NCBI GenBank assembly: GCA_949840475.1 | Contig: CATKXA010000001.1 | Location: 1 to 39,255 of the forward strand | Length of the DNA: 39,255 bases | Origin: an uncultured Thermoanaerobacterales bacterium | GTDB taxonomy: Bacteria > Bacillota > Clostridia > Christensenellales > UBA1242 | Reading direction: 5' to 3' | Part shown: positions 5,932-37,015 of the stretch, piece by piece | Position numbering within the stretch: the stretch's first letter is position 1 | Layout of the letters: each line of letters opens with the position of its first letter | The notes under the pieces: model-generated | The model's database searches: none | Told to the model about the DNA's origin: nothing | Seen by the model: the letters and a program-made list of their open reading frames with translations, nothing else | Translations under genes and position numbers: made by a program

Positions 5932-8900
5932 ATGAAAAAGTTTTTATCGTACATTGTTACCTTTGTTGTAATGTTCTTCATTTCAGCAGCTGTAACAGTG
6001 TCAATGTCAATGTCGGGAGGGGGTTCACTCTTATTGCCTAGCCAAGACGATACGCAGGCAAGTGGCTCTTCCTTTTTTAATGGCATTTTAAAGACTTTTG
6101 AAGAAAATAAGCAGTTTAATGTTATGGGTAACCTAGAGATTAAAACTGAAGATCAAGTAATTCCAGTTAGCCTTTTTGTTAATATTGACTTAGAAGACGC
6201 AAGCAATATTAAAGTCGAAGGCTTTGTAATAGCAAATATAGACCAAAAGTATACTGTTGAGTTTTCTCTATACAATAACTGTTTATACCTATCGTTTGAA
6301 GATATAAATGTAAAATTAAATATCAATGGCTTTAGCGAGCTAATTGATACATTAAGTAATATTTTAGGCACTGGTAATCAAAATGACACTTCAAGCTTTG
6401 TTGAAGATTTGATGCCAACACTAATGGGTGCGTTAGACAATTTAAAAGAAACCGTTACTGCTGATGGCGAGAAACTAGTAGAAATTACTATAGACAATTT
6501 AGTGTCAGCACAAATTCTTCTAGACAAGGACGAAAAACTAAAAAAAGCAAGCCTTGAAACTATAGACTTAGACGGCGTTAGTTTAACTGCTGTGCTTGAT
6601 ATAACATTTGACGAAGAAATCGTCATAACCAATCCAGAAAAGAGCATTCCTGTTAGAGAGTTCTTTGACGTATATGAGCTTTATAACTTAAACTTTGGCT
6701 CAGGCAATTTATTTAATAGCTTTGATTATCAGATTGGCATCAATGCTTTAAACTCTTGCCAAAGTTTAAATGGTTATGCAGTTATAGATAATGGCTTAAG
6801 CATGGTTGGAAACTTAAATGGCTTTGTGAGCCAAAGCTTTAGACTTGACTTTATAGATAACCAGTTATTTGTAAATGTTGGCGACATACGTGTTAAACTA
6901 GATATTGCTAGTCTTGATAGATTGCCTGCCAGCGAGCAAACTAAAGCTGGCATTGGCATTTTAAGTTCTATGCCTAGCATTTCTACAGATATTAGTATAG
7001 ACAGCATTCTAAGTTTGTTAAAACAATCAAAGGTGTGCTTAAGTAAAAATCAGGTACTTTTAAAAACAAACCTTAATGCACTTGGCATTAACTTAGAGGC
7101 CGAGATTGTACTTGCTTTAAATAATTACGAGATTGAAAATATAAGCATTGTTGCGAGCCTAGAGCAAAATGAGTTTAATATAAACTTATGCAAAGCTTCG
7201 CACCAAAAACCAGCCAGCATAGACGGTAATAAGTATCTTGATGTTGTGAACTTTGTAGAAAGCACGATGGAAAACTTTACTTTGAGCGAGGGCAATATCT
7301 TTGCAAGTATTGAGGTGCTTAGTGGCAACAAGCAATATTTAGCCAATGCAAATATATTTGTGTCTGCGATAAATCAATACTTTAGTGCTGATATGAATAT
7401 AGCTGGCGATATGGCATTTGATGCAAACATTGCTATGCAAAATGGTAGACTATTCTTGAGGTCAAATGGCACTGCTCTTAGCGTTGAAACTGAAAGAGTT
7501 TACCAGCTTGTTAAATTCTTGGCAAACAGCAATATTATTAAAAATATCAATGTAGAAGACTTGAGCAAACTTTTAGGAACTTCAAGCGATTTAGTTGGCG
7601 GTTTTGATATAAATGACCTAAAGTGTATAAAAACTCTCAGTGTAGATGCTAGCCAAATAAAGCTTGTTGTGGACGGTGACGTTTTTGGCTCACATAGCGA
7701 CATCACTCTAATAATAACACTTGAAGATTATATTGTTAGCGAAATCGAGCTTATGGGCATTGAAATAGAAGATACTAAAGTAAATGCTAAGTTCAACTTA
7801 TATGGTGGCGAGGTTGAGCAAAAGTATTATAATCCTAATGATTATGCTAACCTAGACAGCGTGGTATCACTATCTGAAGCTGCAGTTAAAACTTTGTACC
7901 AAGATGGTATTAAAGGTAGCATTTATGCCAATTTTGAGTTGTTTGGCGAAATCAACGAGTTAAAACTTGAGTATGGCTTTAACTTTGATAACTGCAACTT
8001 AAATGGATATATTGTTACAAACTTCAAAGGTTTAGATATTAATTTATACTTTATTGACGGAACTTTCTATGCAAACATAATCGGCTTAAAAGTATATGTT
8101 GAGTTCACAGAATTTGGCGACCTTATAAATTACTTATCACGTGAGTTCGGATTAGAGCTTGACGGCTTTGATATTAATAACCTTTTACAAAGCTTGAAAG
8201 ATGTAGACTTAAGCCAGATTATTCTAGGATACATTGGCGGAGAAAAGAGTGTTGAACTTAATCTTGCTAATGATATCACTATCTTTGTTAACTTTGATGA
8301 ATTTGTTAACCAGGTAATAGTTAGAGTTAAAAATGTGTATGTTGAACTAAATGTGTTTAGTTATGACAGCAGCGAGATTGATAATTTAAATAAAGATGAA
8401 TTTGGTCATTATAGTATAATTAAAGATACTGTCAGTGCAATTAAAAATACTCTTAGCGAAAATCAATTTAGTATTAATGCTATAGCAAATGTATATGAAG
8501 ACAATATGCTAACATATAACGCCAATGTTGATTTAGCTGTTGATATGAGTGAAGCGTTTAAAGCAAGTGCTAATGTTTCGCTTACTGGTAAACAAAATAT
8601 TAGTTTAAATGTTAATTATATTGATAGTAAGTTATTTGTTAACTATAACAAACTAAAATTATCTGCAAGCAAACAAAGCATAAGTGAGCTACTAGCATTA
8701 GTTATGCAAATGCTTGGCATCGATGCTTCTAATGTTGGCATTTTAGATAATGTAATTAGTGGCATGGATGTAGACATGAGTGTTTTACAAAGCATTATGC
8801 CTAGCATGGATATGAAAAACCCACTTAATATGCTTACCGTTATCAAAAACATAAGCATTGTTAACAATCAGTTTATCATTACACTAAACGGCGATTTAGT

Positions 8901-11067
8901 AAGTAGTGGTGCTGGCGATATGACTGTTAAGCTAAGCATTAATGCAAACGGAATTGAAAGCATTGAGCTTAACAATATTTATGCAGGCAATGCAAGCGAA
9001 CGCTTTGACTTAAAAATCTTATTCAATGAATTTAATGGCGTGAGCGAGGCTTTTGAGCCTGATAGTTATATTGACATTTCAAACAGCGTAGATTTGCTCA
9101 AAGCATTTATCAATACTGCACAGCTCACTGATTACCATATTGCTGGTCAAGCAAAGCTAGCAATAGTTGGTATCTCTGCTGCAAGCCTATTTATAGACGC
9201 TAGAATAAAGCTTGACGAGAACAAAGTTCCAACTATAGCTGTTAGCATAAGTAATTATCCAATAGTTGCGGGTATTACTAACGAGTTCACAAATGGCGGT
9301 ATTTCTAAAAAGCGTACTATAACAATTTACTATCATGACGGTGCACTATATCTTAAAACCTTTGATGCTAAAGTACTTGGTGCAAGCGAGTATACTAAGG
9401 TTACAAAAATCACACTTAATGATCTTGTAAACGATATGTCATACTATATGCAATGGCTTTTGGGCTTTAAAGACAATATCCAAAGCAAGATTGACGAAGC
9501 AATTAAGAAGAGTCAAGAGTATGAGGGCGAAACAGACATTAGCAATATCTTGCTTGGTTACACTTTTGAAGACAATGTACATAAGCTTCAAATCAACCTA
9601 GCAGAAATTGCTCATAACGACGACCTTGGAACGCTTTCACTTGAGCTTGGAACTAAAAATGATGAGCAAACTAAAAACAAAGAGTTTATCTATGAGCTTG
9701 GTTTAAAAGTTAATTTCTTTGGCAACTTACTCGCACTCGAAACAGATAAGGACAACAAGCTATACTTAACAGATATCTATGAGCCAGTTGACTTGACTGA
9801 GGCTATGGATTATATCAATTCTTATAGCTTTGGCTTTAATGCTGAATACAAACGTGAAGGAAATGGCGAGTTTGTTCAAACCAATGCACAAAATATAACA
9901 ATAACTTTAAATAGCGATGGCGAGCTAAGTTATTTAACAGGAGTTGTTGGTCAAGGCTTAAGCTTACCAATACTTTCTAAAGTACTAGATGACGGCAATA
10001 AAATAACTTACTATACTTTCGCCGGCTGGTACACTTCGGACGGACAAAAGTTTACTGGTAGCAGTTATCCAAAGTCTGACATTACATTGTACGCTAGATA
10101 TAATATAGACTATATTAAATATTATTATTATATTAATTATATATATAATGGAAATGTTGACTCTGTTAAAGTGCTTGAAGGCTCACTTGTTGACCTATTG
10201 ACTTTGGCAAACATGTATCAGGAGCTTGGCGACGATTATATCGAATACAGCTTTGCTGGTTGGTACTTAAACGAGAACCTTTCTGGCGAGCGAATCCATA
10301 GCTTAGAAATTAATGAAAATATTAACCTATACGCTAAGTGGAAAGAAGAAAGAAGAGTATCTAAAAAATTACTAACTATTTACGACAACGGCACACTAGT
10401 GTTTAGTGATAAACTGGTAGTTGGCGACGTTGTTAAGTTGCCTAATGGCATTGCTAAAGACGCAAACACAAAACTATATTTAAACAGCGATTATACTGAT
10501 GAATATACTTTAATCGTAATGCCAAATGAAGATTTAACACTACATGTAAGAAACAAGTATGTTTTGCATGTTGCAAGTGAACATGGAATATTGGTTGACG
10601 ATTATCTAGAACTTTATCAAGGCGAAAACTTTGAACTAGTTAACCAAAACGACTTTGTCAAAGACATATACGGCGTAAGCAAAACCACTGGAGTGTTTGT
10701 TGGTTGGTCATATGCTGGTAATATTATGCCAAACAGCGACTTAACTATTACAGCGAACTGGGACATTGATGTTAAGCAATATTTTACAGTAACTATCCAT
10801 AATGACTGGTATAGACCAGCAGGCTGGGTTACAGACGGCAACATTCAAACATCGTTTGAAAACACTATTACCTTGCAGCCTATGCTAGAGGGCTCTGAAA
10901 TAGACTTATCTGCATATTTTATGACTATCAAAGTTAAATACGGAATAAACTATACATATAAAATCACTGGTTTTTCTGAAAGCACAAAGGGTAGTGGAAC
11001 TAAAATAACAAGCATTGCTAGCTTAGATAAAAATTATGATTTGTATGCAGTATGGAAAAGAGCATAA
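5932..11067 (+). CDS. giant N-terminally membrane-anchored surface protein (1711 aa) with C-terminal Listeria-Bacteroides-type repeats
   Basis: Starts 3 nt after the comEB stop. N-terminal hydrophobic helix. The C-terminal ~390 aa hold about five repeats, three or four ending in aromatic motifs (YTFAGWYTSDG..ITLYARY, YSFAGWYLNEN..INLYAKW, FVGWSYAGN..LTITANW, ..YDLYAVWK). A terminator follows. Confidence 0.85.
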   Translation: MKKFLSYIVTFVVMFFISAAVTVSMSMSGGGSLLLPSQDDTQASGSSFFNGILKTFEENKQFNVMGNLEIKTEDQVIPVSLFVNIDLEDASNIKVEGFVIANIDQKYTVEFSLYNNCLYLSFEDINVKLNINGFSELIDTLSNILGTGNQNDTSSFVEDLMPTLMGALDNLKETVTADGEKLVEITIDNLVSAQILLDKDEKLKKASLETIDLDGVSLTAVLDITFDEEIVITNPEKSIPVREFFDVYELYNLNFGSGNLFNSFDYQIGINALNSCQSLNGYAVIDNGLSMVGNLNGFVSQSFRLDFIDNQLFVNVGDIRVKLDIASLDRLPASEQTKAGIGILSSMPSISTDISIDSILSLLKQSKVCLSKNQVLLKTNLNALGINLEAEIVLALNNYEIENISIVASLEQNEFNINLCKASHQKPASIDGNKYLDVVNFVESTMENFTLSEGNIFASIEVLSGNKQYLANANIFVSAINQYFSADMNIAGDMAFDANIAMQNGRLFLRSNGTALSVETERVYQLVKFLANSNIIKNINVEDLSKLLGTSSDLVGGFDINDLKCIKTLSVDASQIKLVVDGDVFGSHSDITLIITLEDYIVSEIELMGIEIEDTKVNAKFNLYGGEVEQKYYNPNDYANLDSVVSLSEAAVKTLYQDGIKGSIYANFELFGEINELKLEYGFNFDNCNLNGYIVTNFKGLDINLYFIDGTFYANIIGLKVYVEFTEFGDLINYLSREFGLELDGFDINNLLQSLKDVDLSQIILGYIGGEKSVELNLANDITIFVNFDEFVNQVIVRVKNVYVELNVFSYDSSEIDNLNKDEFGHYSIIKDTVSAIKNTLSENQFSINAIANVYEDNMLTYNANVDLAVDMSEAFKASANVSLTGKQNISLNVNYIDSKLFVNYNKLKLSASKQSISELLALVMQMLGIDASNVGILDNVISGMDVDMSVLQSIMPSMDMKNPLNMLTVIKNISIVNNQFIITLNGDLVSSGAGDMTVKLSINANGIESIELNNIYAGNASERFDLKILFNEFNGVSEAFEPDSYIDISNSVDLLKAFINTAQLTDYHIAGQAKLAIVGISAASLFIDARIKLDENKVPTIAVSISNYPIVAGITNEFTNGGISKKRTITIYYHDGALYLKTFDAKVLGASEYTKVTKITLNDLVNDMSYYMQWLLGFKDNIQSKIDEAIKKSQEYEGETDISNILLGYTFEDNVHKLQINLAEIAHNDDLGTLSLELGTKNDEQTKNKEFIYELGLKVNFFGNLLALETDKDNKLYLTDIYEPVDLTEAMDYINSYSFGFNAEYKREGNGEFVQTNAQNITITLNSDGELSYLTGVVGQGLSLPILSKVLDDGNKITYYTFAGWYTSDGQKFTGSSYPKSDITLYARYNIDYIKYYYYINYIYNGNVDSVKVLEGSLVDLLTLANMYQELGDDYIEYSFAGWYLNENLSGERIHSLEINENINLYAKWKEERRVSKKLLTIYDNGTLVFSDKLVVGDVVKLPNGIAKDANTKLYLNSDYTDEYTLIVMPNEDLTLHVRNKYVLHVASEHGILVDDYLELYQGENFELVNQNDFVKDIYGVSKTTGVFVGWSYAGNIMPNSDLTITANWDIDVKQYFTVTIHNDWYRPAGWVTDGNIQTSFENTITLQPMLEGSEIDLSAYFMTIKVKYGINYTYKITGFSESTKGSGTKITSIASLDKNYDLYAVWKRA

Positions 11068-12073: not shown

Positions 12074-12784
12074 ATGGTTCAAGGAATAGTTTTTACAGTT
12101 ACTGCTGTTATATGTTTGGCTCTCATGATTGCATTTTTGGTAGTTAGGATAAAAAGGGGAGCAAATGATTTGTCTGTTTGTTTAAAGACAATGGCGTCGC
12201 TTGTGTTTGTGTTTGGGGCTTTGATTGCTATATATTTGAGTGGCTTGTTTTTAGCAAATATTTTAATTGTGATGGGTCTTATTTGTGCAATGCTTGGGGA
12301 CGTGGCTCTTGATTTAAAGTACACTCACGTTGATTATAAAAAGCAATACCTTAATGCTGGAATGGTGTGTTTTTGCTTGAGCAATGTGTTTTACATTATT
12401 GCAATCAGTTTTATGTTTAATTCCGCACAAAACTTTTGGCTTTTTGCGGGTGGAATGGTGCTTGTGGCACTAGTGTTTGCAATAATAGTATTTCTTATGG
12501 CAAAGCCACTAAAGCTTGATTTTAGCGGTTTTAAAGCGCTTACATTTGTTTATTCATTTCTAGTAAGCCTTACCAGTTTTTTGAGCCTTGGCATTTGCTT
12601 TTTTGTAAGCGGGTTTGCAATTTTTGCATGTGGGGCAATACTTGTTTTAATTTCAGATTTAGTGTTATCTCTTATGTACTTTGGTGGCAAAGATAACAGC
12701 AAAGTTTTATGTATTGTGAACCATAGTTTATATTACATTGGTCAGCTACTAATCGTTGCATATTTGTTCTTTCAAATGGTATAA
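12074..12784 (+). CDS. YhhN-family membrane protein (lysoplasmalogenase-like)
   Basis: ATG after GGAGA. Polytopic membrane protein with MLGDVALDL and LISDLVLSL motifs that resemble the two conserved Asp motifs of YhhN/TMEM86. Confidence 0.65.
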   Translation: MVQGIVFTVTAVICLALMIAFLVVRIKRGANDLSVCLKTMASLVFVFGALIAIYLSGLFLANILIVMGLICAMLGDVALDLKYTHVDYKKQYLNAGMVCFCLSNVFYIIAISFMFNSAQNFWLFAGGMVLVALVFAIIVFLMAKPLKLDFSGFKALTFVYSFLVSLTSFLSLGICFFVSGFAIFACGAILVLISDLVLSLMYFGGKDNSKVLCIVNHSLYYIGQLLIVAYLFFQMV

Positions 12785-27337: not shown

Positions 27338-27934
27338 TTAAATAGGTTTTCTATCTTCAAGGGCTTTAGTTAAGGTCACTTCGTCGGCGAACTCAAGTTG
27401 AGTTCCGGCTGCAAGTCCTTGAGCGATGCGTGTGACTTTAACACCATAAGCCTTAACAAGGGAAGCAATGTACATTGCTGTTGCTTCGCCCTCAACGTCT
27501 GGGCTGGTTGCTAAAATAACTTCAGTTGTATCGCCTTTAGCGACCCTTGCTATAAGCTCGGCTATCTTAATATCCTTTGGAGCGATATTTGCTAAAGGAT
27601 TAATCGTGCCATGAAGCACATGGTAAACGCCTTTATATGAGTGAGCTTTTTCTATTGCGAGTACGTCCTTAGGCTCTTTAACAACACATATAGTGCTATG
27701 TGAGCGACTGTCGCAGATAGGGCAGGTATCGCCGCTTGCAAAGTTTCCGCAAATAGAGCAGAACTTAATGTTGTTTTTTGCTTCAAGTATAGCTTTGGCA
27801 AAGGTTTCAGCTTGTTCGCTTGAACCAGTCACTATATGGTAAGCATATCGTCCAGCCGTTTTTTTACCAACGCCGGGCAACTTGCTGAACTCATTGATTA
27901 ATCTATCTAAGCTTTCGAGTTTAGTAGTATCCAC
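27338..27934 (-). CDS. recR: recombination protein RecR
   Basis: LPGVGKKTA HhH motif, C4 zinc finger CSICGN..CPIC, and a Toprim region. Confidence 0.95.
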   Translation of the reverse strand: MDTTKLESLDRLINEFSKLPGVGKKTAGRYAYHIVTGSSEQAETFAKAILEAKNNIKFCSICGNFASGDTCPICDSRSHSTICVVKEPKDVLAIEKAHSYKGVYHVLHGTINPLANIAPKDIKIAELIARVAKGDTTEVILATSPDVEGEATAMYIASLVKAYGVKVTRIAQGLAAGTQLEFADEVTLTKALEDRKPI

Positions 27935-28263
27935 TACATCATGCCCCCAAATCTACCGAGTTTTTGAGCCTTTAAATCATCAGCTTTGCTAGAAGCATCT
28001 TGCAAGGCTGCTAAAACTAAGTCTTCAAGCATTTCAACATCGTCAGGGTCGACAACGTCCTTGCTAATAGCTATGCTTACTGGTGCTTTGTTTCCAGTGA
28101 TAGTTACTTTCACCATTCCGCCACCGCTTACACCTTCAACTTCTGTTTCGTCTACTTCTTGTTGAGCTTTCATTGCTTCTTCTTGCATTTTTTGTGCTTG
28201 ACGCATCAATGCTTGCATGTTGGCGTTTCCACCGCCACCCATAAAGCCACCAAATTTTGCCAT
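27934..28263 (-). CDS. ybaB: nucleoid-associated protein YbaB/EbfC
   Basis: Start moved to MAKFGG (GGAGGT 10 nt upstream). The NMQALMRQAQKMQEE...VTITGNK pattern is typical of YbaB. Confidence 0.92.
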   Translation of the reverse strand: MAKFGGFMGGGGNANMQALMRQAQKMQEEAMKAQQEVDETEVEGVSGGGMVKVTITGNKAPVSIAISKDVVDPDDVEMLEDLVLAALQDASSKADDLKAQKLGRFGGMM

Positions 28264-28264
28264 A

Positions 28265-29461
28265 TTATTCATTACCTCCAAATTCGTCTGATTTATTATT
28301 TGATTTATTATTTATCTTTTCGTTTAGTAAGTCAACCAATTCTGTAGACTTATTTGATTTCCCTTTTGCAGGTATTAGTGTTTCTTTTAATGCATCTACA
28401 AGCAAGTCGCCATTATATTTTTCCATATTTATATATTGTTTAACAAATATAGCAAGAAGACTTTTTCTATATGCATCGAACGAGAATGATGAGTCAAAGA
28501 GTTTAATATCTGAGGAGATTTCAAAATCGCTAAGATGTTCGTGAAGATCCTCTTTACTTATCAGACTCAAAATGTTGCGATCATAATCTATTGAAATATA
28601 TGGGAGATAGTTTTCATCAAGAGTAGCTAGCATTATATAAGCAGGTTCGCCTATAATTTTGATAGTGTCAGGTTTAATTAAAGAACGTTCAAAATCTTGT
28701 GGTCTGAAAAGATGCGTATACACATAAGAGCTTGCCCATTTTAAAGCTTTTGCTTTTTTTTCTATCTTTTCTTTTTCAGAAATATAGTCACAGTTGCCAT
28801 AAGTGTCATAACAAGACTCCTCACCACAGTTACCATTGTTGCATTTGGTGCGATGGTATTCATTGTATTCTTCTGAGGCTTGTTGTGTTTTGTTAACAAG
28901 GTCAAGTAAAAGAGAGAGTTCTCTAAGTGCTGGTTCTTCAGAATTTAGCTTTGCATGTTTGAAAACAGTAGCCATGTGAGTTTTTGCGATTTTTTTATCA
29001 AAATCTCTTTGCATGGTTTGAATAGCCGATAGAGGCAAAGCTGCAGATACTACAGAGTCTATAACATTTCTTAATTCAAGTATGCTCTCATTTGTAACCC
29101 TATGAGGAATATTTTCGCTCTCAAACTCTTCATATAGCCCAATTATAAGTGATGCGTTTATTGCTAGGTTTTTATCGTTAGTTTGTTTCAAATAGTTGTA
29201 TAAATTAAAAGCCATCGCAATAAAGTTGTTCATATATACGGAATTTTCAGCATTTAGAAGATTAGGGAGCATTTTAATATAGTATCTTAAATCATTTTTA
29301 AACTGAATTATCTGATCAAGAGTTTCGCTGTCGCTTGATGGGATTGAGTATGCCATCTTTAGTTCTTGTTCAAAGGATTCAGATAGCTTGAAACTATTTG
29401 GTATGTATCCTTCCATGTCTAGTATTTCAGGGGTACGTTTTTTAATATATATTGGTTCCAT
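28265..29461 (-). CDS. hypothetical protein (398 aa) inserted between dnaX and ybaB
   Basis: An AAGGAG built into the last dnaX codons lies 8 nt upstream of the ATG. The stop lies 1 nt before the ybaB ATG. Contains a Cys cluster CNNGNCGEESCYDTYGNC. No family recognised. Confidence 0.75.
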   Translation of the reverse strand: MEPIYIKKRTPEILDMEGYIPNSFKLSESFEQELKMAYSIPSSDSETLDQIIQFKNDLRYYIKMLPNLLNAENSVYMNNFIAMAFNLYNYLKQTNDKNLAINASLIIGLYEEFESENIPHRVTNESILELRNVIDSVVSAALPLSAIQTMQRDFDKKIAKTHMATVFKHAKLNSEEPALRELSLLLDLVNKTQQASEEYNEYHRTKCNNGNCGEESCYDTYGNCDYISEKEKIEKKAKALKWASSYVYTHLFRPQDFERSLIKPDTIKIIGEPAYIMLATLDENYLPYISIDYDRNILSLISKEDLHEHLSDFEISSDIKLFDSSFSFDAYRKSLLAIFVKQYINMEKYNGDLLVDALKETLIPAKGKSNKSTELVDLLNEKINNKSNNKSDEFGGNE

Positions 29462-29466
29462 CTAGG

Positions 29467-30987
29467 TTACTCCTTTATCGTTAGTTTGTCTTTAAAAGTG
29501 TTTGATAATTCAGAAATGTTAAGCTGTTTTTTCTCTATCATTTTGAAGTTATATGTAAGGGCTAGTGAACTAAAGAAATTTGTTAACACTTGTTTGTACT
29601 TATCTCTTACTATTATATCCAAAGTTAGCTGATCGTCAACATAGAAAATTACATTTGCACCATTTAGTTCAACTTTGACAATTTGTCTGACTGCACTTAA
29701 AAGGCTCATTTCTTTGTTTTCTTTTAGATAATTAATTAAAAGACCAAGTACTTCGCTTTCGCCACTAACGCTTGCATTGCTCTGTTTTTCTGGTTCATGC
29801 TGGATTGTTTTTGCGGGCTCTGCTGTTTGTGGCTTTGCACTGATGTTAATATTTGCGTTACCCGTTAGCATTTTTTCTAGGTTTTCTACACGTTTTAAAA
29901 GCGAGTTTTGGCTTAGGGTTTTAATAAATGCAGTTTCTAAAACTATTCTTGGAGAAACGCTGTAGCGTAGTTCAGCTTCAATAGCACTTAGGTTGTTTAT
30001 TGCTGAAATAATCAAGGAATAATTTTCCGATGATGCTTGAGCTTTCATTTTTTCAAAAACGTCTTCACGAGCAACGACCATTGTTTTAGCATTATCCCTA
30101 AGAGTGTTTATTATTAATAAATCTCTAAAGTATTCAATCAAGTCCTTGCTTAGTACAAGTGGGCTTTTGCCAGTAGACAATACTTTGTCTAATTGCTTTA
30201 AACTATCACCCAAGTTCTCAGTTAGTATTGCGTTTGAAAGGTTAATAAGTTCTTGCTTTTCTGTGGCACCCAGTATGTCCATTGTGTCGCTGTAAGTCAA
30301 GTTTGTAGAGGAGTAGGAAATACACCTATCTGCTATGCTCAATGTGTCACGCACGCTGCCTTCGCCCGCTCTCGCTATTACTTCTAGAGCTTCACTTTCA
30401 TAACCAATGTTTTCTTGCTTAAATACTTTAACTAATAGGTTTGTTAAATCTAATGTTGGAACTAGACCAAAATCAAACCTTAAGCATCTAGAAAGGATTG
30501 TTGCTGGTATTTTGTGAACTTCAGTTGTTGCTAAAATAAATACAGCGTATGAAGGTGGCTCTTCTAGTGTTTTGAGCAGTGCATTGAATGCACTAGGGGA
30601 GAGCATGTGCACCTCGTCAATAATGTATACTTTATACTTGCCGTTAACTGGCGGGTATTTGACCTTTTCTCTTAAATCTCTGATTTCGTCTACGCCATTA
30701 TTTGATGCTGCATCTATTTCTAGAATGTCAATATTATTAGAGCTAAGAGCCTTGCAGGCGTTGCAGTTTCCACAAGGGGAGCTGTTAATAGGAGAAGAGC
30801 AGTTTATAGCCTTTGCAAAGATTTTTGCAGTTGAGGTTTTACCTGTTCCACGGCTTCCGCAGAATAAGTAGGCATGACCAATTTTGTCACTCGCAATCTG
30901 GTTTTTTAGTGTTTGAATTATGTGGTTTTGACCTATAACCTCGTCGAAGTTTTGTGGTCTGTACTTTCTATAAAGTGCTAAATACAT
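29467..30987 (-). CDS. dnaX: DNA polymerase III subunit gamma/tau
   Basis: Contains YRPQNFDEVIGQ, GSRGTGKTS, IIDEVHML and SRC motifs, plus a zinc module CGNCNAC. Confidence 0.95.
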   Translation of the reverse strand: MYLALYRKYRPQNFDEVIGQNHIIQTLKNQIASDKIGHAYLFCGSRGTGKTSTAKIFAKAINCSSPINSSPCGNCNACKALSSNNIDILEIDAASNNGVDEIRDLREKVKYPPVNGKYKVYIIDEVHMLSPSAFNALLKTLEEPPSYAVFILATTEVHKIPATILSRCLRFDFGLVPTLDLTNLLVKVFKQENIGYESEALEVIARAGEGSVRDTLSIADRCISYSSTNLTYSDTMDILGATEKQELINLSNAILTENLGDSLKQLDKVLSTGKSPLVLSKDLIEYFRDLLIINTLRDNAKTMVVAREDVFEKMKAQASSENYSLIISAINNLSAIEAELRYSVSPRIVLETAFIKTLSQNSLLKRVENLEKMLTGNANINISAKPQTAEPAKTIQHEPEKQSNASVSGESEVLGLLINYLKENKEMSLLSAVRQIVKVELNGANVIFYVDDQLTLDIIVRDKYKQVLTNFFSSLALTYNFKMIEKKQLNISELSNTFKDKLTIKE

Positions 30988-30989
30988 AT

Positions 30990-31544
30990 CTACTCCTTAA
31001 TTTTGAGTTTTATTCTTTGGATTGTGTTTGTTATGCTACGGGGCTCTTTGCCTAACTTTACTGCAATTTCTGATGTTTTTAAGCCGTCTAAGTAAAGCCA
31101 TAACACCTCGGTTTCAAAACTGCTTAGACCTTTAAGTGCTTTTTCAAGCATCTCGTCACGCTTTTCTTTTGAAATAAATATTTCCTCAGGGTCGACAGAA
31201 ATCCCAAGCTCTGAAATCTCAAACTCGCAATGCTCGCCATTCATTTGAAGTATTGGGCTTGCATTATTGAGTATGCTGTTGCGTTTGGTATTAGAGGCTT
31301 TAATTGCATCAATTATATGCCTTTTAATGCTGGTAGCTGCATAGCTTCTAAAAATATCACTCTTATAGTCGCCGCGGCTTCTATCGTAATGCCTGTACGC
31401 TTCGAGTAGGCCTATCATGCCCTCTTGATAAAGGTCGTCAAAAGTACCGCCAACTAGATAGAACCTTCTACAAATAGAAGTAACCAGCTTGGTGTAGTTT
31501 TCAATAACCTCTTCAACAGATAAATCGTCTTTTTTTTCAGTCAA
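30990..31544 (-). CDS. sigH: sporulation sigma factor SigH-like (ECF-sized sigma-70 family)
   Basis: DLYQEGMIGLLEAYRHYD (region 2) and VLWLYLDGLKTSEIA...TNTIQRIKLKI (region 4) resemble Bacillus SigH. Lies in the mrnC-rlmB-sigH neighbourhood. TTG start. Confidence 0.8.
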   Translation of the reverse strand: MTEKKDDLSVEEVIENYTKLVTSICRRFYLVGGTFDDLYQEGMIGLLEAYRHYDRSRGDYKSDIFRSYAATSIKRHIIDAIKASNTKRNSILNNASPILQMNGEHCEFEISELGISVDPEEIFISKEKRDEMLEKALKGLSSFETEVLWLYLDGLKTSEIAVKLGKEPRSITNTIQRIKLKIKE

Positions 31545-31549
31545 TTCAT

Positions 31550-32278
31550 TTACCTCTTTGTTTGTTGTTGGCGTGCAGCTTCATACATTAATATTCCTGC
31601 ACTGACGCTTGCATTTAGCGAGTTGATTTTTCCTTGCATTGGAATGCTTACAACGCCGTCAGATATCTTTTTGGTAAGAGCACTAACACCATTACCTTCA
31701 GCACCAATAACCAATGCAATGTTGCCGGTTAAATCTGTTTTGTACATTGAAGTGCCGTCCATGTCCGCTGAGAATACGAAGATGTTTTGACCTTTTAATT
31801 TGTTGATAGCGTCGTTGATATTGTTGACCTTGCAAACATTAACATGGCTAGTTGCACCAGCAGAAGTTCTGATAACTGTTTCATTTACAAGTACAGAGTT
31901 GCGGGCTGGAAGGATGATAGCGGTTGCATTTACGCATTCAGCAGTCCTTATAATGCTGCCAAGATTGTGCGGGTCAGACAGTTTATCTAAAACTATGAAC
32001 ATCATTCTTTGGTCTTGATTTTGTGAATCACTAATAACTTGGTCAAGTTCGCTATAAACAAACTCAGTCACAACAGCGATAACGCCTTGATGATGACCAG
32101 TCTTGCTCATGCGGTCTAATGCTTGCTTGTTAAGTTGCTCAATTCTAGCACCTTTGTTTTTTGCAGCTTTGATAATTTCTTTAATAGCAAAATCGTTGCT
32201 TTCGGTTACGCAAATTTTTTCTATTGTTAAGTTTGAATTTAAAATTTCTTTTACAGGGTTTTTACCTTCTATAAACAT
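31550..32278 (-). CDS. rlmB: 23S rRNA (guanosine-2'-O)-methyltransferase RlmB (SpoU/TrmH family)
   Basis: Contains HHQGV, DPHNLGSIIRTA, LVIGAEGNG and SLNASVSAGI motifs. Confidence 0.9.
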   Translation of the reverse strand: MFIEGKNPVKEILNSNLTIEKICVTESNDFAIKEIIKAAKNKGARIEQLNKQALDRMSKTGHHQGVIAVVTEFVYSELDQVISDSQNQDQRMMFIVLDKLSDPHNLGSIIRTAECVNATAIILPARNSVLVNETVIRTSAGATSHVNVCKVNNINDAINKLKGQNIFVFSADMDGTSMYKTDLTGNIALVIGAEGNGVSALTKKISDGVVSIPMQGKINSLNASVSAGILMYEAARQQQTKR

Positions 32279-32668
32279 TTAGTCCTCCGCGATAGTCAGA
32301 TTTAAAATCTGGTCTAATCTTTCATTTTGATTTGTTAAATATAAGAAGCCGATAACTGCTTCTAGTGCTGTGGCATAGTTATAGTCTTGCACAGAATAGT
32401 TTTTTGCAGTGTGGGCTTTGTTTGCATTTCTTGCTCTACGGGCTATGTCTTTTTCATCGTCAGTTAAAATATGCTCGATTTTCTTGAAGGCATTGCTTTG
32501 AAACAGTGCATTGACTTTGTTCTTTGTTAACTGATTAAGCTTGTTAACTTTGTAGTTATAGCTTTGAACCATATTATTTCGCACAAAAAGTGTGTGAACT
32601 GCATCTCCAATAAAAGCGAGAACTAATGGTTGCATGTTCTTAATTTCTAAAGTTTTGTTAGTTTCCAT
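32279..32668 (-). CDS. mrnC: mini-ribonuclease III
   Basis: LAFIGDAVHTLFVR signature. Length of 129 aa. Sits directly upstream of rlmB. Confidence 0.85.
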   Translation of the reverse strand: METNKTLEIKNMQPLVLAFIGDAVHTLFVRNNMVQSYNYKVNKLNQLTKNKVNALFQSNAFKKIEHILTDDEKDIARRARNANKAHTAKNYSVQDYNYATALEAVIGFLYLTNQNERLDQILNLTIAED

Positions 32669-32826
32669 TTTGCTCCCTTATATATAATAAATAAATTATA
32701 ACAAATAATATAAAGCTTTGCAAGGTAAACCTCAATATTTGTGCAACCTGTGAAAAATAAAAATCTGCCATTAAAGAGAATGACAAAAGTTTCATAAGTT
32801 GATTTTGTGTTTCATACACTAATGAT

Positions 32827-33546
32827 ATGAAAAAGTCAAGAAAGTATATTTTTAGTTTACTTAAAAAGGGTCAGATAATTTTTTGTATGGTTGTAGCACT
32901 GCTTGTAATTTCGTCGTGCATTGCGGTGGATATTGGTACAGCCACTGCTAGTAATGGAAAAGAAAGCTTAGACTTTACCATTGTTATTGATGCGGGACAC
33001 GGCGGCATTGACCCTGGCAGCATTGGTTACAAAACCAAGGTAAAAGAAAGCGTTATAAATTTGTCGGTTGCAAAAAAGCTCGAACAAAAGTTGTCCGAAA
33101 TAGGGCTTAGAGTTATCATGACAAGGAAAGACGAAAACGGGCTTTATGGCTTGTCGACCACTAATTATAAAAAACGGGATATGCAAAAAAGGCGTGATAT
33201 TATTGAAAAAGCACACCCTGACGTTGTTGTCAGTGTGCATATGAATAGCTATGTTCGGCACAATCTTAGGGGTGCTCAGGTGTTTTTTGATAAAACAAGC
33301 CCAGTGAGTGAACAGCTTGCACTTTTTATTCAAGACCAGTTTGCAAGCAAACTTGAAAAAAGCGATAAGGGTATTTCTGTTGGGGACTACTATATGCTAA
33401 AATGCACTAAAGCAGCTTCGGTTATTGCTGAGTGCGGATTTTTATCTAACGAAGAGGACGAAAAACTGCTTTTGAATGAGGCTTACCAAGATAAGATTGC
33501 TGAGTGTATCTTTGTTGGCATTGTTGGCTTTTTGAATTTGGAGTAA
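32827..33546 (+). CDS. cwlD: N-acetylmuramoyl-L-alanine amidase CwlD (germination-specific)
   Basis: Signal anchor, IDAGHGGIDPG, VSVHMNS and ECGFLSNEEDE motifs, and CwlD-like size. Confidence 0.85.
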   Translation: MKKSRKYIFSLLKKGQIIFCMVVALLVISSCIAVDIGTATASNGKESLDFTIVIDAGHGGIDPGSIGYKTKVKESVINLSVAKKLEQKLSEIGLRVIMTRKDENGLYGLSTTNYKKRDMQKRRDIIEKAHPDVVVSVHMNSYVRHNLRGAQVFFDKTSPVSEQLALFIQDQFASKLEKSDKGISVGDYYMLKCTKAASVIAECGFLSNEEDEKLLLNEAYQDKIAECIFVGIVGFLNLE

Positions 33547-33549
33547 GCG

Positions 33550-33789
33550 TTAGCGAGATTGCTTGATTTTATATTCGGGATTGCAGAGGTCGGACACCCT
33601 TTTGTCCATAAAGGTGGCTATTTTAAATATTACTCCCATGCTGCAGTTATGCTTTGTCATTACTTTTAGGTATGTGTTTCTACATATCTTACAGCCTTTG
33701 CAAAATTCGCCTACTGTAAGTCTTCTTGTTTTTATAAACTTTGCAATGAGGTCAACATTGATTAAATGTGCCAAATTGTTTTTGTACAT
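33550..33789 (-). CDS. small HTH-like protein (79 aa), divergent partner of an XRE gene (module B)
   Basis: AAGGAG lies 10 nt upstream. The helix pattern LTVGEFCKGCKICRNTYLKVM...VIFKIATFMDKRVSDL fits an XRE-like five-helix HTH. Confidence 0.7.
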   Translation of the reverse strand: MYKNNLAHLINVDLIAKFIKTRRLTVGEFCKGCKICRNTYLKVMTKHNCSMGVIFKIATFMDKRVSDLCNPEYKIKQSR

Positions 33790-33816
33790 TGTGTTTTATC
33801 TCCTTTAACTAAGCAT

Positions 33817-33845
33817 ATTGTACGGTGCGTATTCGCACTAGTCAA
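33817..33845 (-). promoter_or_regulatory. sigma-A-type promoter of the module B partner gene
   Basis: On the minus strand: TTGACT, 17-nt spacer, TACAAT. The spacer is filled by the palindrome GTGCGTATTCGCAC. Confidence 0.65.
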
Positions 33846-33866
33846 GTATTTTATGCGAATAAGCAC
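33825..33866. promoter_or_regulatory. two operator-like 14-bp sites (module B)
   Basis: GTGCGTATTCGCAC lies at 33825-33838. Its inverted copy GTGCTTATTCGCAT (reverse strand) lies at 33853-33866. Identity is 12/14 and the centres are 28 bp apart. Confidence 0.6.
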
Positions 33867-33901
33867 TACAATATTTGTTAAAGATAGATGTAGGTGTGTT
33901 T

Positions 33902-34105
33902 ATGAAAATATTTTGTGAAAGGCTAAAAGAACTCAAGCAAGAGAAAAAGTTGTCTAATGAAAAATTGGCTAAAATTTTGAATGTAAGTAGTTCTACAATT
34001 TCTCGTTGGGAGAACGGAATAATAATCCCAAGCATTGAACATTTATACAACATTGCAAGATACTTCAGTGTGAGTGCAGATTATTTGCTTGGCTTAGAAG
34101 ATTAA
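33902..34105 (+). CDS. XRE-family HTH regulator (67 aa, module B)
   Basis: Start moved to MKIFCERLKEL. Ends in YFSVSADYLLGLED like the other two XRE genes. Confidence 0.88.
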   Translation: MKIFCERLKELKQEKKLSNEKLAKILNVSSSTISRWENGIIIPSIEHLYNIARYFSVSADYLLGLED

Positions 34106-34112
34106 TAAAAGT

Positions 34113-34146
34113 TAAAAAATTCGGCTACGTGGTCGAATTTTTTGTA
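34113..34146. terminator. bidirectional terminator
   Basis: TTCGGCT..GGTCGAA stem (with G:U pairs) flanked by A6 and T7. Confidence 0.6.
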
Positions 34147-34150
34147 ACAT

Positions 34151-34380
34151 TTATATTAAATACTCAATATTGCAGAGGTCTGCAATTTTTTTATGCATAA
34201 AAACAGCGATTTTAAAAATTGCACTAATCCTAAAGTTATTGCCACTAAGCATTCTAAAAATGTGCTTTGACTTATCTTACATTTCTCACAAAATTGTTTT
34301 TTAGTCAAATTATTGTCTTGTATAAACTGATAAATAACCTCAGCTTTTATAAGGCAACGAATATTTTGTTGTTTTGTCAT
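34151..34380 (-). pseudogene. frameshifted paralog of the module B partner gene (module C)
   Basis: The N-terminal 40 aa align with the 79-aa protein. After the T5 run (plus-strand A5 at 34256-34260) the homologous sequence continues in another frame (SAIFKIAVFMHKKIADLCNIEYLI*). Confidence 0.6.
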
Positions 34381-34421
34381 ATTTGGCTCCTTAGACTTTT
34401 AAAAACGTTTGTTTTTACACT

Positions 34422-34450
34422 ATTATACAACAACATTTGTTGTTGGTCAA
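34422..34450 (-). promoter_or_regulatory. sigma-A-type promoter of the module C partner gene
   Basis: On the minus strand: TTGACC, 17-nt spacer, TATAAT. The spacer is the 18-bp palindrome CAACAACATTTGTTGTTG. Confidence 0.65.
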
Positions 34451-34470
34451 TATTTTAACGACAAATGTTG
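34428..34470. promoter_or_regulatory. two operator-like sites (module C)
   Basis: The palindrome CAACAACA-TT-TGTTGTTG lies at 34428-34445. The second site CGACAAATGTTG at 34459-34470 is the inverted copy of CAACATTTGTTG with 11/12 identity. Confidence 0.6.
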
Positions 34471-34492
34471 TAATATGTGTATAGAGGTAGAT

Positions 34493-34702
34493 ATGTATAC
34501 ATTTGCAGAAAGGTTAAGAGAATTGCGACTAGAAAGAAATTTGAGCCAGGCAGAACTTGCGGCTGCTGTAGGCAATAAGATTACAAGTTCAGCTATTGGT
34601 TTATGGGAACTAAACAAAAGAGTACCGAATTTGGAAGCTGTAATTTTACTTGCTCAATTTTTTGGCGTAACGCTTGATTATTTGGCGGGGATAGAGGATT
34701 AA
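34493..34702 (+). CDS. XRE-family HTH regulator (69 aa, module C)
   Basis: Start moved to MYTFAERLRELR (GAGGT 5 nt upstream). Ends in FFGVTLDYLAGIED. Confidence 0.85.
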   Translation: MYTFAERLRELRLERNLSQAELAAAVGNKITSSAIGLWELNKRVPNLEAVILLAQFFGVTLDYLAGIED

Positions 34703-34713
34703 AGGAGAAAATT

Positions 34714-35721
34714 ATGGATAAGATACAAAAAGTTTTTATTGCAGGCGGGACTGGATTTTTAGGGTATGCAGCTGCTGAGCTTTTTCTAGAGCGAGGGGTA
34801 AAGGTTGATTCAATCGCTTTAGCGGGCGAGTTTGACAGCCTAAGTTTTGTAGACAAGCGAATGGGTTTAGTTGTTGGAAACTTGTTTGAAATGAGTGATG
34901 AACAGCTTTATCAGTTATTTAAAGACAAAAACTATGATGCAATAGTATATGCTCTTGGTCCTGATGACAGGGTGACGCCAAAAGCACCAGCATATGAGTT
35001 TTTTTATGAAAGACTTGTTAATAAGTGTTACAATATTTTAAATGCTGCAAAAAAAGCAGGAGCAAAAAAGGCTGTCATACTTAGTTCGTACTTTGCTCAT
35101 TTTGACAAGCTTTTAAGTGGAAAGCTAAGCAAAAAGCATGCATATATTAGAGCTAGAAGAGAGCAACAAAACAAGTGTTTTGGTTTGAGCGACGACAGAT
35201 TTAAGGTTTGTGCGTTAGAGCTCCCATATATTTTTGGGGTGCAAGAGGGCAGAAAGCCTATTTGGAAAGACAGCTTCTTGTCTTACTTTGACGGCTTTAA
35301 GAGTGTCTACTTCCCAAGCGGTGGAGCAACTGCAATAATAGACAGAACTGGAGTTGCTGAAGCAATTTATGCTTGCACAATAAATGGAGAGGGAAAAACA
35401 GCTTACCCAATAGCAACAGACAATATTTCATACAAAGAGATGCTTAAATTAATGCTGTTAGGCTTAAACGATAATAGGAAAGTTGTAACTATCCCTGGGG
35501 CATTATGTGCACTTGGAACATACTCTATGTTAAAAAAGCATAAAAAAGAGGGCAAAGAATCAGGACTATATTATCCAAGTCTTATGAATGGTATATTGAA
35601 CAAAGAGTTTACTATTGATGCTAAAAAGAGCATGGATGCACTAGGATTTGAGGCTCTTAACCTTACTGGGGGCAAGGACGCTAGGCAGTCTATAAAAGAC
35701 ACTATGAAAGCATTAGTTTAG
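34714..35721 (+). CDS. NAD(P)-dependent oxidoreductase / epimerase (extended SDR family)
   Basis: N-terminal Rossmann motif FIAGGTGFLG. AAGGAG RBS lies 12 nt after the XRE stop. Confidence 0.85.
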   Translation: MDKIQKVFIAGGTGFLGYAAAELFLERGVKVDSIALAGEFDSLSFVDKRMGLVVGNLFEMSDEQLYQLFKDKNYDAIVYALGPDDRVTPKAPAYEFFYERLVNKCYNILNAAKKAGAKKAVILSSYFAHFDKLLSGKLSKKHAYIRARREQQNKCFGLSDDRFKVCALELPYIFGVQEGRKPIWKDSFLSYFDGFKSVYFPSGGATAIIDRTGVAEAIYACTINGEGKTAYPIATDNISYKEMLKLMLLGLNDNRKVVTIPGALCALGTYSMLKKHKKEGKESGLYYPSLMNGILNKEFTIDAKKSMDALGFEALNLTGGKDARQSIKDTMKALV

Positions 35722-35767
35722 GTATAGGCAATAAATAGTTGGATATACTTTTAGTAGCAAAAACTAA

Positions 35768-36094
35768 ATGGAAAGCAGAATGGACGATAGTAATTTTTAT
35801 CAAAGAGTATACGAATACGTAAAGTTAGTACCGCTTGGCAAAGTTACGACCTATGGGCAGATTGCGGCAGCGATTGGCAGACCAAAGGCTAGCAGAGTGG
35901 TGGGATATGCGTTGCATAAAAATCCGAACCCACAAGAGATACCTTGCCATAGGGTGGTTAACCGAGAGGGAAAGCTTACTGAAAGTTTTGCTTTTGGTGG
36001 AGCAAAAGAGCAAAAACGTAGACTTGAGGCCGAGGGGGTTGAGGTTAAGAAAAACCGAGTTGACCTCGACAGATATTTGTTTCATTTATGGTAA
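35768..36094 (+). CDS. MGMT-family protein (methylated-DNA-protein-cysteine methyltransferase DNA-binding domain only)
   Basis: Contains VPLGKVTTYGQIAA and the active-site-like IPCHRVV. Short one-domain form (108 aa). Confidence 0.85.
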   Translation: MESRMDDSNFYQRVYEYVKLVPLGKVTTYGQIAAAIGRPKASRVVGYALHKNPNPQEIPCHRVVNREGKLTESFAFGGAKEQKRRLEAEGVEVKKNRVDLDRYLFHLW

Positions 36095-36095
36095 T

Positions 36096-36126
36096 AAAAA
36101 AACCAAGCGTTAGCTTGGTTTTTCTT
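36096..36126. terminator. bidirectional terminator
   Basis: ACCAAGC..GCTTGGT stem flanked by A7 and T5. Confidence 0.75.
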
Positions 36127-36136
36127 AATTCTTTTA

Positions 36137-37015
36137 TTAATCTTTATATCTAGTTACTGCAAGGGCAAGAGCTCCAGGTCCGATATGGCAGGATACGCTT
36201 AGAGATAGTGGGTCAACACTTAGAATTTCTAATCCTTTAAACTCCGCTGTTACTTCTTCTTTAAACTTTTCAGCCATTTCGTAGTTATCAGTATGAGCAA
36301 TGCAAAGACCCATTTTGCCTTTTTTGTTTAGGTCTGCAAATCTTTCAGCAAGGTCTTTTTTAACTGCAGAAATCATTTTTGTTTTTGCTTGGTTCATATT
36401 CATAACCTTAGCAAAAGAGTCTAACTTTTCGCCTTGGATTTGAAGCACTGGTTTGATGCTTAGAAGTGTTGCAATAGCAGCAGCTGCTGGTGTAACACGA
36501 CCGCCTCTTTTTAGATATTTAAGAGTTTGAACAGTGATATAAATACTAGAATCCAATTTGGTAGTTTCTAAATATTCTTTAATTTCTTTAGCGGATTTTC
36601 CGTCTTCTGCAAGCTTTAAAGCCTCATAAACACTAGCTTTTTGAGTGACAGAAATACGTTGGTTATTAACGACTTCTACTTTGCCCTTGTATTCTTTTTC
36701 GTCTGCAAATCTAATCGCAGAAGAGCAAGACTCACTTAAGCCGCTACTCATAGGTATATAAACAATTTGCTCGTAATCTTTCAAGACTTTATTCCAAAGG
36801 TCAGTAACTTCGCCGAGTGATGGTTGAGATGTTGAAATTTTTACATCGCTTTTTAGTTTTTCATAAAATTCTTGTTGAGATAAGTTAATATCCTCGTAAA
36901 AATCTTCTCCGTCGATAATAAATGGCATTGGTAGAACGAACAAGTTATTCTTTGCTTCGCTTTGAGTGATGCCAGAGTTACTATCAGTTACAACGGCTAC
37001 TTTATTTTTATTCAT
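36137..37015 (-). CDS. DegV-family fatty-acid-binding protein
   Basis: N-terminus VAVVTDSNSGI, plus ...STSQPS... and ...GPGALALA. Length is typical of DegV. Confidence 0.9.
   Translation of the reverse strand: MNKNKVAVVTDSNSGITQSEAKNNLFVLPMPFIIDGEDFYEDINLSQQEFYEKLKSDVKISTSQPSLGEVTDLWNKVLKDYEQIVYIPMSSGLSESCSSAIRFADEKEYKGKVEVVNNQRISVTQKASVYEALKLAEDGKSAKEIKEYLETTKLDSSIYITVQTLKYLKRGGRVTPAAAAIATLLSIKPVLQIQGEKLDSFAKVMNMNQAKTKMISAVKKDLAERFADLNKKGKMGLCIAHTDNYEMAEKFKEEVTAEFKGLEILSVDPLSLSVSCHIGPGALALAVTRYKD

Follow-up and report, generated by a model that had tools for sequence, protein, structure and literature searches.

Two divergent XRE repressor/small-partner modules downstream of cwlD in an uncultured Thermoanaerobacterales bacterium: probable stand-alone cassettes on a shared promoter scaffold

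Architecture of modules B and C

The window analysed here is a stretch of 39,255 nucleotides (nt) from the chromosome of an uncultured mouse-gut Thermoanaerobacterales bacterium, and its region 33550-34702 contains four small genes in two divergent pairs, called modules B and C. Each pair combines a small helix-turn-helix (HTH) gene on the minus strand (B_small, C_small) with an XRE-family gene on the plus strand (XRE_B, XRE_C). The two modules are probably stand-alone XRE repressor/partner cassettes, of a kind common in Christensenellales-like gut Clostridia, in which the promoter scaffold is controlled by the XRE protein. The cassette consists of an XRE gene encoding a single HTH_3 domain of 65-70 amino acids (aa), a back-to-back array of promoters and palindromic operators ([-10]-O1-[-35]...O2-[-10]), and a divergent small partner gene. 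The coordinates are listed in Table 1.

The intergenic region is 112 nt long in module B and in module C alike. When the two regions were aligned, the Shine-Dalgarno (SD) sequence, the -10 and -35 elements of the small gene and the -10 of the XRE gene matched, whereas the operator cores did not. A preliminary description of this DNA had assigned an identical architecture to the two units. This is correct for the DNA layout, but in this assembly module C has one broken arm, which is intact in four of four other runs. The preliminary description had also stated that the operator sequences of the two modules are different, and the intergenic alignment agrees with this. The alignment supports diverged operator specificities of the two modules, as predicted from their sequences.

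Table 1. Genes, promoters, predicted operators and terminators of modules B and C and the adjoining genes.
Feature	Position	Strand	Description
B_small	33550..33789	-	79 aa, single-domain XRE-fold HTH, FCxxCKIS subfamily; open reading frame (ORF) call
XRE_B	33902..34105	+	67 aa, HTH_3 62.5 bits; C-terminal DYLLGLED; monocistronic
C_small	34154..34380	-	Paralogue of B_small; frameshifted in this assembly at run 34256-34260
XRE_C	34493..34702	+	69 aa, HTH_3 57.4 bits; first gene of a likely XRE_C-SDR(-MGMT) transcript
SDR gene	34714..35721	+	NAD-dependent epimerase/dehydratase family (extended SDR); domain search
MGMT-family protein	35768..36094	+	108 aa, DNA_binding_1 domain, PCHR motif present
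Terminator after MGMT-family gene	36098-36123
B_small promoter	33817..33845	-	TTGACT-17-TACAAT; -35 at 33840-33845, -10 at 33817-33822; 10/12
C_small promoter	34422..34450	-	TTGACC-17-TATAAT; 11/12
O1_B	33825..33838		GTGCGTATTCGCAC (GTGCG-TATT-CGCAC), in promoter spacer; 5-nt arms, non-symmetric 4-nt centre
O2_B	33853..33866		ATGCGAATAAGCAC; 2 mismatches; abuts the -10 of XRE_B (TACAAT, 33867-33872)
O1_C	34428..34445		CAACAACATTTGTTGTTG (CAACAACA-TT-TGTTGTTG), fills the spacer; 8-nt arms
O2_C	34458..34471		ACGACAAATGTTGT; 1 mismatch; overlaps the -10 of XRE_C (TAATAT, 34471-34476)
O3_C (possible weaker third site)	34400..34417		TAAAAACGTTTGTTTTTA, in the C_small leader, 28 bp from O1_C
Bidirectional terminator-like hairpin	34115-34142	both	Between the stops of XRE_B and C_small; flanking A and T runs

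Promoters and operator palindromes

The near-consensus minus-strand promoters with 17-nt spacers were found as previously proposed, and a palindrome occupies each spacer. A second copy had been placed about 28 bp away, at the -10 of the divergent XRE gene; the centre-to-centre distance between O1 and O2 is exactly 28 bp in both modules, and the second copies are imperfect. The possible third site O3_C carries three mismatches to the O1 core and forms a palindrome of its own with 7-nt arms. In the promoter scan, the B_small and C_small promoters were the two top sites of the region, in which the total of 8 promoter-like matches was not above the shuffle mean of 8.4.

Each operator motif occurs at two places only within the window, namely at its O1 and O2. 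For the motif of module B the chance expectation is 0.14, and two or more matches appeared in 1 of 100 shuffles; for the AT-rich motif of module C the expectation is 1.15, and 29 of 100 shuffles reached two matches, so that module C is not supported by the site count alone. Among the 48 promoter-like sites of at least 10/12 in the window, the spacer palindrome of module C ranked first by arm length and that of module B fifth, and the sites ranking between them are AT-only runs. Palindromes arising by chance were considered and ruled out, as each motif forms a unique pair, the spacing is 28 bp in both modules and the arrangement recurs throughout the family. The prediction that the palindromes behave as real operators is supported by the recurrence of this layout in nine of ten pairs, described below.

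Recurrence of the cassette outside prophages

Eleven genes encoding HTH proteins with the FCxxC signature were examined, including those of the two window modules. Ten have as their divergent neighbour an XRE gene that encodes 65-70 aa or, in one case, is degenerate; the pairs are window modules B and C and those of P0034, P0019, P0035, P0012, P0021, P0015, P0020 and P0016. The eleventh gene is an orphan (locus L023), and the partner of P0012 (locus L089) is a degenerate XRE. Nine of the ten pairs have a small-gene promoter whose 17-18-nt spacer is occupied by a palindrome. Eight of these nine promoters score 10-12/12 and the remaining one (L001) 9/12; further copies of the palindrome are located 19-32 bp away. 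Each lineage has its own palindrome, such as ATGGC-N5-GCCAT, AAGTCTTATAAGACTT, TTACGTATACGTAA or TTGG...CCAA.

Several loci have individual features. At L089 (162-392), the XRE keeps the N-terminal FCERLKELR and is otherwise degenerate, and both ATGGC...GCCAT operators are intact. The switch region of L095 (2432-2500) is ultra-compact, with only 69 nt, and both of its genes look leaderless, as each -10 ends 6 nt upstream of the ATG. A leader also seems to be lacking from most cassette XREs at the other loci; modules B and C instead have SD-containing leaders.

The preliminary description had noted that no prophage surrounds the modules, and had suggested a comparison of genomes to see whether the pairs move as units or mark the ends of prophages. 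Within the window, the modules are flanked by cwlD, SDR, MGMT and DegV genes, and integrase genes, att-like repeats and phage genes are absent from their flanks. Eight further contig sets contain such a two-gene unit; there, the pairs lie on short chromosomal-type contigs beside housekeeping genes (cobW/tmk, DegV/DUF386/CdAMP_rec, prfA/prmC/L31/ileS), and no phage genes were found among the called neighbours. Searches of 50,697 phage records, the PLSDB plasmids and IMG/VR revealed no relative of the small protein. The absence of a surrounding prophage is thus supported, and the genome comparison shows a recurring unit with housekeeping flanks.

The XRE proteins and the question of duplication

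XRE_B and XRE_C both pass the Pfam HTH_3 (PF01381) gathering threshold of 23 bits. They are plain HTH_3 proteins with the tails DYLLGLED or DYLAGIED, in which the domain search revealed no sensor or oligomerisation domain. The closest solved relatives of XRE_B are Pli0006, ICEBs1 ImmR-type proteins and the N-terminal domain of P22 C2.

Pairwise alignment bore out the proposed paralogy of the proteins between the modules: the small proteins share 42% sequence identity (E 4e-22) and the XREs 41% (E 1e-11). In the phylogenetic tree B_small and C_small are sisters with moderate support (87/82), whereas the relationship of XRE_B and XRE_C was not resolved in the XRE tree. XRE_C is 58-63% identical to the XREs of three other loci (L058, L064 and L068), where the XRE is paired with another type of partner. 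Since XRE_C is closer to these XREs from other genomes than to XRE_B, a tandem duplication of the whole module is not demonstrated. The duplication assumed previously might hold for the small genes; the XREs are not demonstrably duplicates of each other.

The small partner proteins

B_small is predicted to be a DNA-binding protein with the XRE fold and belongs to a rare HTH subfamily. Its AF2 model has an overall pLDDT of 80 (core above 90) and five helices (12-21, 26-33, 37-44, 51-61 and 65-68), with the HTH at helices 2-3 as in the XRE/Cro fold. The nearest solved folds are NHTF, C.BclI, VanUg, CylR2, HipB, SinR-N and C.AhdI; the Foldseek probability was 1.00 for C.BclI, VanUg, CylR2, HipB and SinR-N, with TM-scores of about 0.6-0.7. 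The profile search with the FCxxC family agrees with these fold matches (3tyr, E 4.6e-6). These solved relatives are single-domain proteins of the XRE fold, which bind palindromic DNA as dimers.

In sequence searches B_small did not pass the cut-off of any curated family. Its match to HTH_26 (PF13443, Cro/C1-type HTH) reached 17.7 bits, below the gathering score of 22; the frameshifted C_small had no HTH_26 match, and some family members have weak precomputed matches to PF13443. No NCBIfam family matched B_small. An exhaustive HMMER search of 1.8 billion representatives revealed relatives in 33 clusters at E<=1e-3, all of 62-92 aa; a word-indexed protein search found only B_small itself, and no record of its exact sequence was found. 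The family signature is L(T/S)xxEFCKxCKIS; its two cysteines, which lie in helix 2, are nearly invariant. This FCxxC-HTH subfamily appears to be undescribed, with no Pfam or NCBIfam family covering the small protein.

Two functional assignments of the small partner were considered. Membership of a defence system was dropped, as PADLOC gave weak generic HTH matches only (Control_protein, 8e-5; the N-terminal HTH of RmrA). The pairs also do not correspond to a type II toxin-antitoxin system (HigA/HipB/Xre-antitoxin), the partner being a divergent HTH protein with no match to a toxin family.

The preliminary description had reported two small genes of about 79 aa. This is true for B_small; C_small encodes 74 aa in frame in this assembly (34156-34380, minus strand), and its frame breaks at a T5 run (A5 on the plus strand). 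The homologous C-terminal half, ...RMLSGNNFRISAIFKIAVFMHKKIADLCNIEYLI followed by a stop, lies in another frame and ends at 34154. Contigs at least 99% identical to the window were compared from four independent public runs, three of them mouse-gut metagenomes and one with a coded organism label. All four carry one extra base at 34255/34256 (TATAAAAT or TAATAAAT, versus TAAAAAT in the window), which restores a C_small of 76 aa, and all four keep both modules in the same order. As C_small is intact in the four other runs, its break would be private to this assembly or strain, or a sequencing error.

Another interrupted copy is found at L093 (2501-2728; the P0020 orthologue, 11 contigs), in which a TGA lies exactly at the invariant Cys30 codon (FWERC if TGA is read as W). 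It is the only in-frame TGA among the seven genes on the contig. Selenocysteine at this position was rejected, as neither a SECIS-like hairpin downstream (-4.8 kcal/mol, z 0.31) nor an Rfam match was found; the TGA is probably a nonsense mutation.

The same scaffold with other partners

The upstream regions of XRE genes in relatives, obtained from the cwlD scan, showed a common scaffold: ATTATA, a 17-nt palindrome, GTCAA, about 6 nt, a second copy of the palindrome, and the -10 of the XRE gene. An alignment of seven such regions (those of window modules B and C, L064, L068, L066, L080 and L082b) revealed a shared -10 (ATTATA/ATTGTA), a shared -35 (GTCAA) and a shared XRE -10, whereas the 17-nt palindromes are variable. 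The divergent partner is a helical protein without an HTH, of the functionally uncharacterised Pfam family DUF6809, in L064 (scaffold region about 10750-10843), L066 (about 12620-12715), L068 (about 10740-10833) and L080 (about 10760-10855); in L082 it is a 48-aa ORF. No mention of DUF6809 was found in the literature searched, and the shared scaffold and the link between XRE and DUF6809 appear to be undescribed.

The operator sequence follows the similarity of the XREs in the cassettes compared. An identical XRE recognition helix (YKQKLSRWKTG) and an identical operator (GTCACA...TGTGAC) are found in L066 and L080. The XRE_C-like XREs of L058 and L064 are accompanied by the cores ACATTTGTTG and AATACAGTTGTATT, which are similar to ACAACATTTGTTGT of module C; XRE_B and the XREs of L092 and L095 have S-x-[SA]-TISRWE helices, and their half-sites all contain CGTA. 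The XRE is most likely the protein that binds O1 and O2, because it is the element common to all scaffolds. Mutual repression by two DNA-binding proteins is probably not the general mechanism, because the same scaffold serves the non-HTH DUF6809 partners.

Proposed mechanism and alternative explanations

In the proposed mechanism, a dimer of the cassette's own XRE would bind the near-perfect O1 within the 17-nt spacer and shut off the partner promoter. At higher concentrations the XRE would also occupy O2, the weaker site, which overlaps the -10 of its own gene, leading to negative autoregulation. The small partner would be the repressed element, and it most likely feeds back on its XRE. An HTH partner might act as a Cro-like competitor for O1 and O2, or as an antirepressor that binds the XRE, like MOR (modulator of repression); either route could produce a two-state switch. 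Modules B and C would be kept apart by their differing recognition helices and operator half-sites, and by the bidirectional terminator between them. Module C may also drive the XRE_C-SDR(-MGMT) transcript, whereas module B would have no local output. Across cassettes the fold of the partner varies (FCxxC-HTH, DUF6809, Cys-rich), whereas tight control of it would be the constant feature.

Several points weigh against this mechanism. Only a few cassettes underlie the correlation between helix and operator, and TISRWE-like helices are common in HTH_3 proteins generally. It is plausible that the small partner itself binds the palindromes: at L089 the operators persist beside a degenerate XRE, and the orphan small gene of L023 has an upstream ACAACAATTGTTGT palindrome. 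The latter was not accepted as proof of binding of the small protein to the operator of module C, since chance copies of this palindrome exist in other loci and the recognition helices are not the same. No -35 can be recognised in the XRE promoters, and the 28-bp spacing, which puts O1 and O2 on different faces of the DNA, argues against simple cooperative binding. No RNA run among those searched contained this stretch. Moreover, copies are decayed in the window (the C_small frameshift), in L093 (the TGA) and in L089 (the degenerate XRE), which suggests that the cassettes may be dispensable.

The preliminary description had proposed CI/Cro-like toggles. In such a toggle both HTH proteins would bind O1 and O2, with opposite preference. 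The XRE would prefer O1 and shut the small gene, the small protein would prefer O2 and shut the XRE gene, and mutual repression would make B and C bistable, orthogonal duplicates. Part of this picture is seen in the sequence, as the HTH genes are divergent and operators lie at both promoters, one in or at each and pseudo-symmetric. Further points in its favour are the XRE-type DNA-binding fold of both proteins, the sister relationship of the small genes and the wholly different operators of the two modules. At L095 the palindrome is perfect on the XRE side and imperfect on the small-gene side, which would fit a preferred site for each protein. Nevertheless, the scaffold also works with DUF6809 and Cys-rich non-HTH partners and hence does not require a second DNA-binding protein; in addition, neither protein has an oligomerisation or sensor domain, and the XREs are not demonstrably sisters. 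The toggle is therefore considered unlikely. A broader version of the cassette model regards the XRE scaffold as a "socket" for interchangeable partners (FCxxC-HTH, DUF6809, Cys-rich), all of which would antirepress their own XRE. The scaffold would be conserved, half-sites and recognition helices would diversify quickly into orthogonal specificities, and the cassettes would be heritable two-state (epigenetic) switches independent of mobile elements. Through the two invariant cysteines of its HTH partner, such a switch might respond to redox state or metals. This version is judged rather improbable as a whole.

The pairs might also be decayed immunity regions of a lost prophage or integrative and conjugative element, left over without current function. 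The XREs score best against the phage repressor families phrog_8, phrog_4 and RstR, the architecture resembles that of an immunity region, the closest relatives lack the modules, which lie at a synteny breakpoint, and several copies are broken. The genomic context described above is difficult to reconcile with such remnants, given the lack of phage genes, integrase and att-like repeats beside the modules, the housekeeping flanks on eight other contig sets and the small protein unmatched in phage, plasmid and IMG/VR collections. In addition, the promoters and operators stay close to consensus and are maintained across strains, and the four other samples have an intact C_small; a remnant is thus very unlikely. 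A similarly low probability is given to ordinary local regulation, with XRE_C repressing the SDR-MGMT operon, the small HTH proteins autoregulated with distant targets, and module B a spare copy. The short SD-containing gap between XRE_C and SDR and the overlap of O2_C with the promoter of the XRE_C-SDR transcript are consistent with it; however, the L088 orthologue of SDR and the MGMT/DegV genes of L009 and L010 have no adjoining XRE or small-HTH gene, and it is the pairing of XRE and partner that is conserved, not the downstream genes. The XRE-controlled cassette with a repressed partner is therefore preferred.

Neighbouring genes and history of the locus

Module B had been described as lacking any cargo, and it is indeed monocistronic on both sides. 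As also described, cwlD and B_small are convergent, with 3 nt between their stops, and no terminator was detected at this junction (no significant hairpin, folding z -0.86). In module C the stop of XRE_C is separated from the ATG of SDR by 11 nt, rather than the 12 nt given previously; the gap contains AGGAG, and SDR is the likely co-transcribed output of the module. The modules are separated from each other by a strong hairpin absent from the preliminary description (AAAAAUUCGGCU...GGUCGAAUUUUU; -15.3 kcal/mol, z -4.6 on the plus strand and -9.5 kcal/mol, z -3.0 on the minus strand). It has few G-C pairs and was hence overlooked by the consensus terminator scan. An Rfam scan of 33000-36300 gave no match.

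The closest relatives are metagenome-assembled genomes of uncultured gut Clostridia, with cwlD 57-74% identical, and in none of them is cwlD followed by the B/C modules. In L009, L010 and L088 the SDR/MGMT/DegV genes adjoin recR, which forms the opposite end of the conserved recR...mrnC-cwlD block. The block recR-ybaB-orf398-dnaX-sigH-rlmB-mrnC-cwlD is therefore inverted in the window (27338-36094) relative to SDR/MGMT/DegV, and modules B and C lie at the new junction between cwlD and SDR. The SDR orthologue of L088 (65% identity) has no XRE gene upstream, and the link between XRE_C and SDR would thus be recent. In L088, a human-gut relative, the gap between recR and SDR (3578-3900) contains three direct copies of a repeat of about 120 bp (ggctctaagtgcagaaactgcgaaaacctt...). 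The gap between mrnC and cwlD is 158 nt in the window and ranges from about 0.15 to about 3.2 kb in the eleven closest relatives holding both genes (L009-L014, L016-L019 and L021).

Cassettes of this general type are found just downstream of cwlD in four distant relatives (L023, L050, L052 and L081), and this slot appears to be a recurrent landing site. L023 (7710-7961) has the orphan FCxxC HTH gene, which encodes 83 aa and is convergent with cwlD; L050 (about 7695-8200) and L052 (about 7730-8300) have cassettes of the module A type, with a Cys-rich CxxC partner and an XRE; and L081 has an XRE gene.

Significance and comparison with known systems

Overall, the evidence favours a cassette built around the XRE, whose partner can be exchanged. 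If the proposed mechanism is true, these modules would be naturally occurring minimal repressor/partner circuits of about 0.55 kb. Many non-cross-reacting operator specificities would then exist on one scaffold, which could provide orthogonal parts for the engineering of anaerobic gut Firmicutes, and the family might serve as a model of how repressor-operator specificity diversifies after duplication. A first functional context, as the repressed partner of a small XRE, would also be given to the FCxxCKIS HTH subfamily and to Pfam DUF6809. The principle of an autoregulated HTH repressor with promoter-embedded palindromes is already known, so that the surprise for specialists is moderate.

The lambdoid CI/Cro systems (lambda, 434, P22 C2) are similar in having divergent HTH genes and graded, multipartite palindromic operators over back-to-back promoters, and XRE_B matches the N-terminal domain of P22 C2 by sequence. 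At the sequence level both modules have two divergent HTH genes and shared operators overlapping both promoters. The lambda cI gene is leaderless when transcribed from PRM, and many cassette XREs likewise look leaderless. In contrast to the lambdoid repressors, XRE_B and XRE_C consist of HTH_3 only and have no C-terminal oligomerisation/self-cleavage (S24), RecA-sensitive domain. The modules also lie outside a prophage and have no lytic genes, the operator is inside the spacer between -35 and -10, and the partner is interchangeable with non-HTH proteins.

The switch of the lactococcal phage TP901-1 is, in the cited accounts, a bistable fragment of less than 1 kb with CI, MOR and divergent promoters (PMC7250872, PMC11149083). 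The CI-MOR units of TP901-1 and phi13 resemble the present modules in size (<1 kb), in the two divergent promoters with operators at them, and in combining a repressor with a small HTH partner of about 70 aa. According to these accounts MOR counteracts CI and the switch is bistable (PMC7250872, PMC11149083). The phage CI is also larger (about 180 aa, with oligomerisation domains) and is encoded in a prophage with lytic genes, whereas the present XREs are bare chromosomal HTH proteins of 67-69 aa.

The controller (C) proteins of restriction-modification systems (C.AhdI, C.BclI, C.Esp1396I) have a similar size and the five-helix XRE fold, and are among the best fold matches of B_small. Their C-boxes are likewise paired palindromic operators in their own promoter region, with concentration-dependent control; however, no restriction or methylase genes occur around the modules in the window, and each cassette contains two regulators instead of a single one. 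In Caulobacter, small paralogous XRE repressors, shared with phages, have been reported to form a chromosomal radiation (PMC10688885). Caulobacter belongs to a different phylum, and the account of those clusters shows no shared divergent partner or operator scaffold. The XRE repressors of the CylR2/VanU type in Firmicutes are also stand-alone XRE-fold dimers, of about 66-75 aa, and 3tyr (E 4.6e-6) and CylR2 are the best profile and fold matches to the FCxxC family. These repressors control cytolysin or vancomycin-resistance operons and have other partners, whereas only the FCxxC family has the FCxxCKIS signature and, as its obligatory partner, a divergent XRE.

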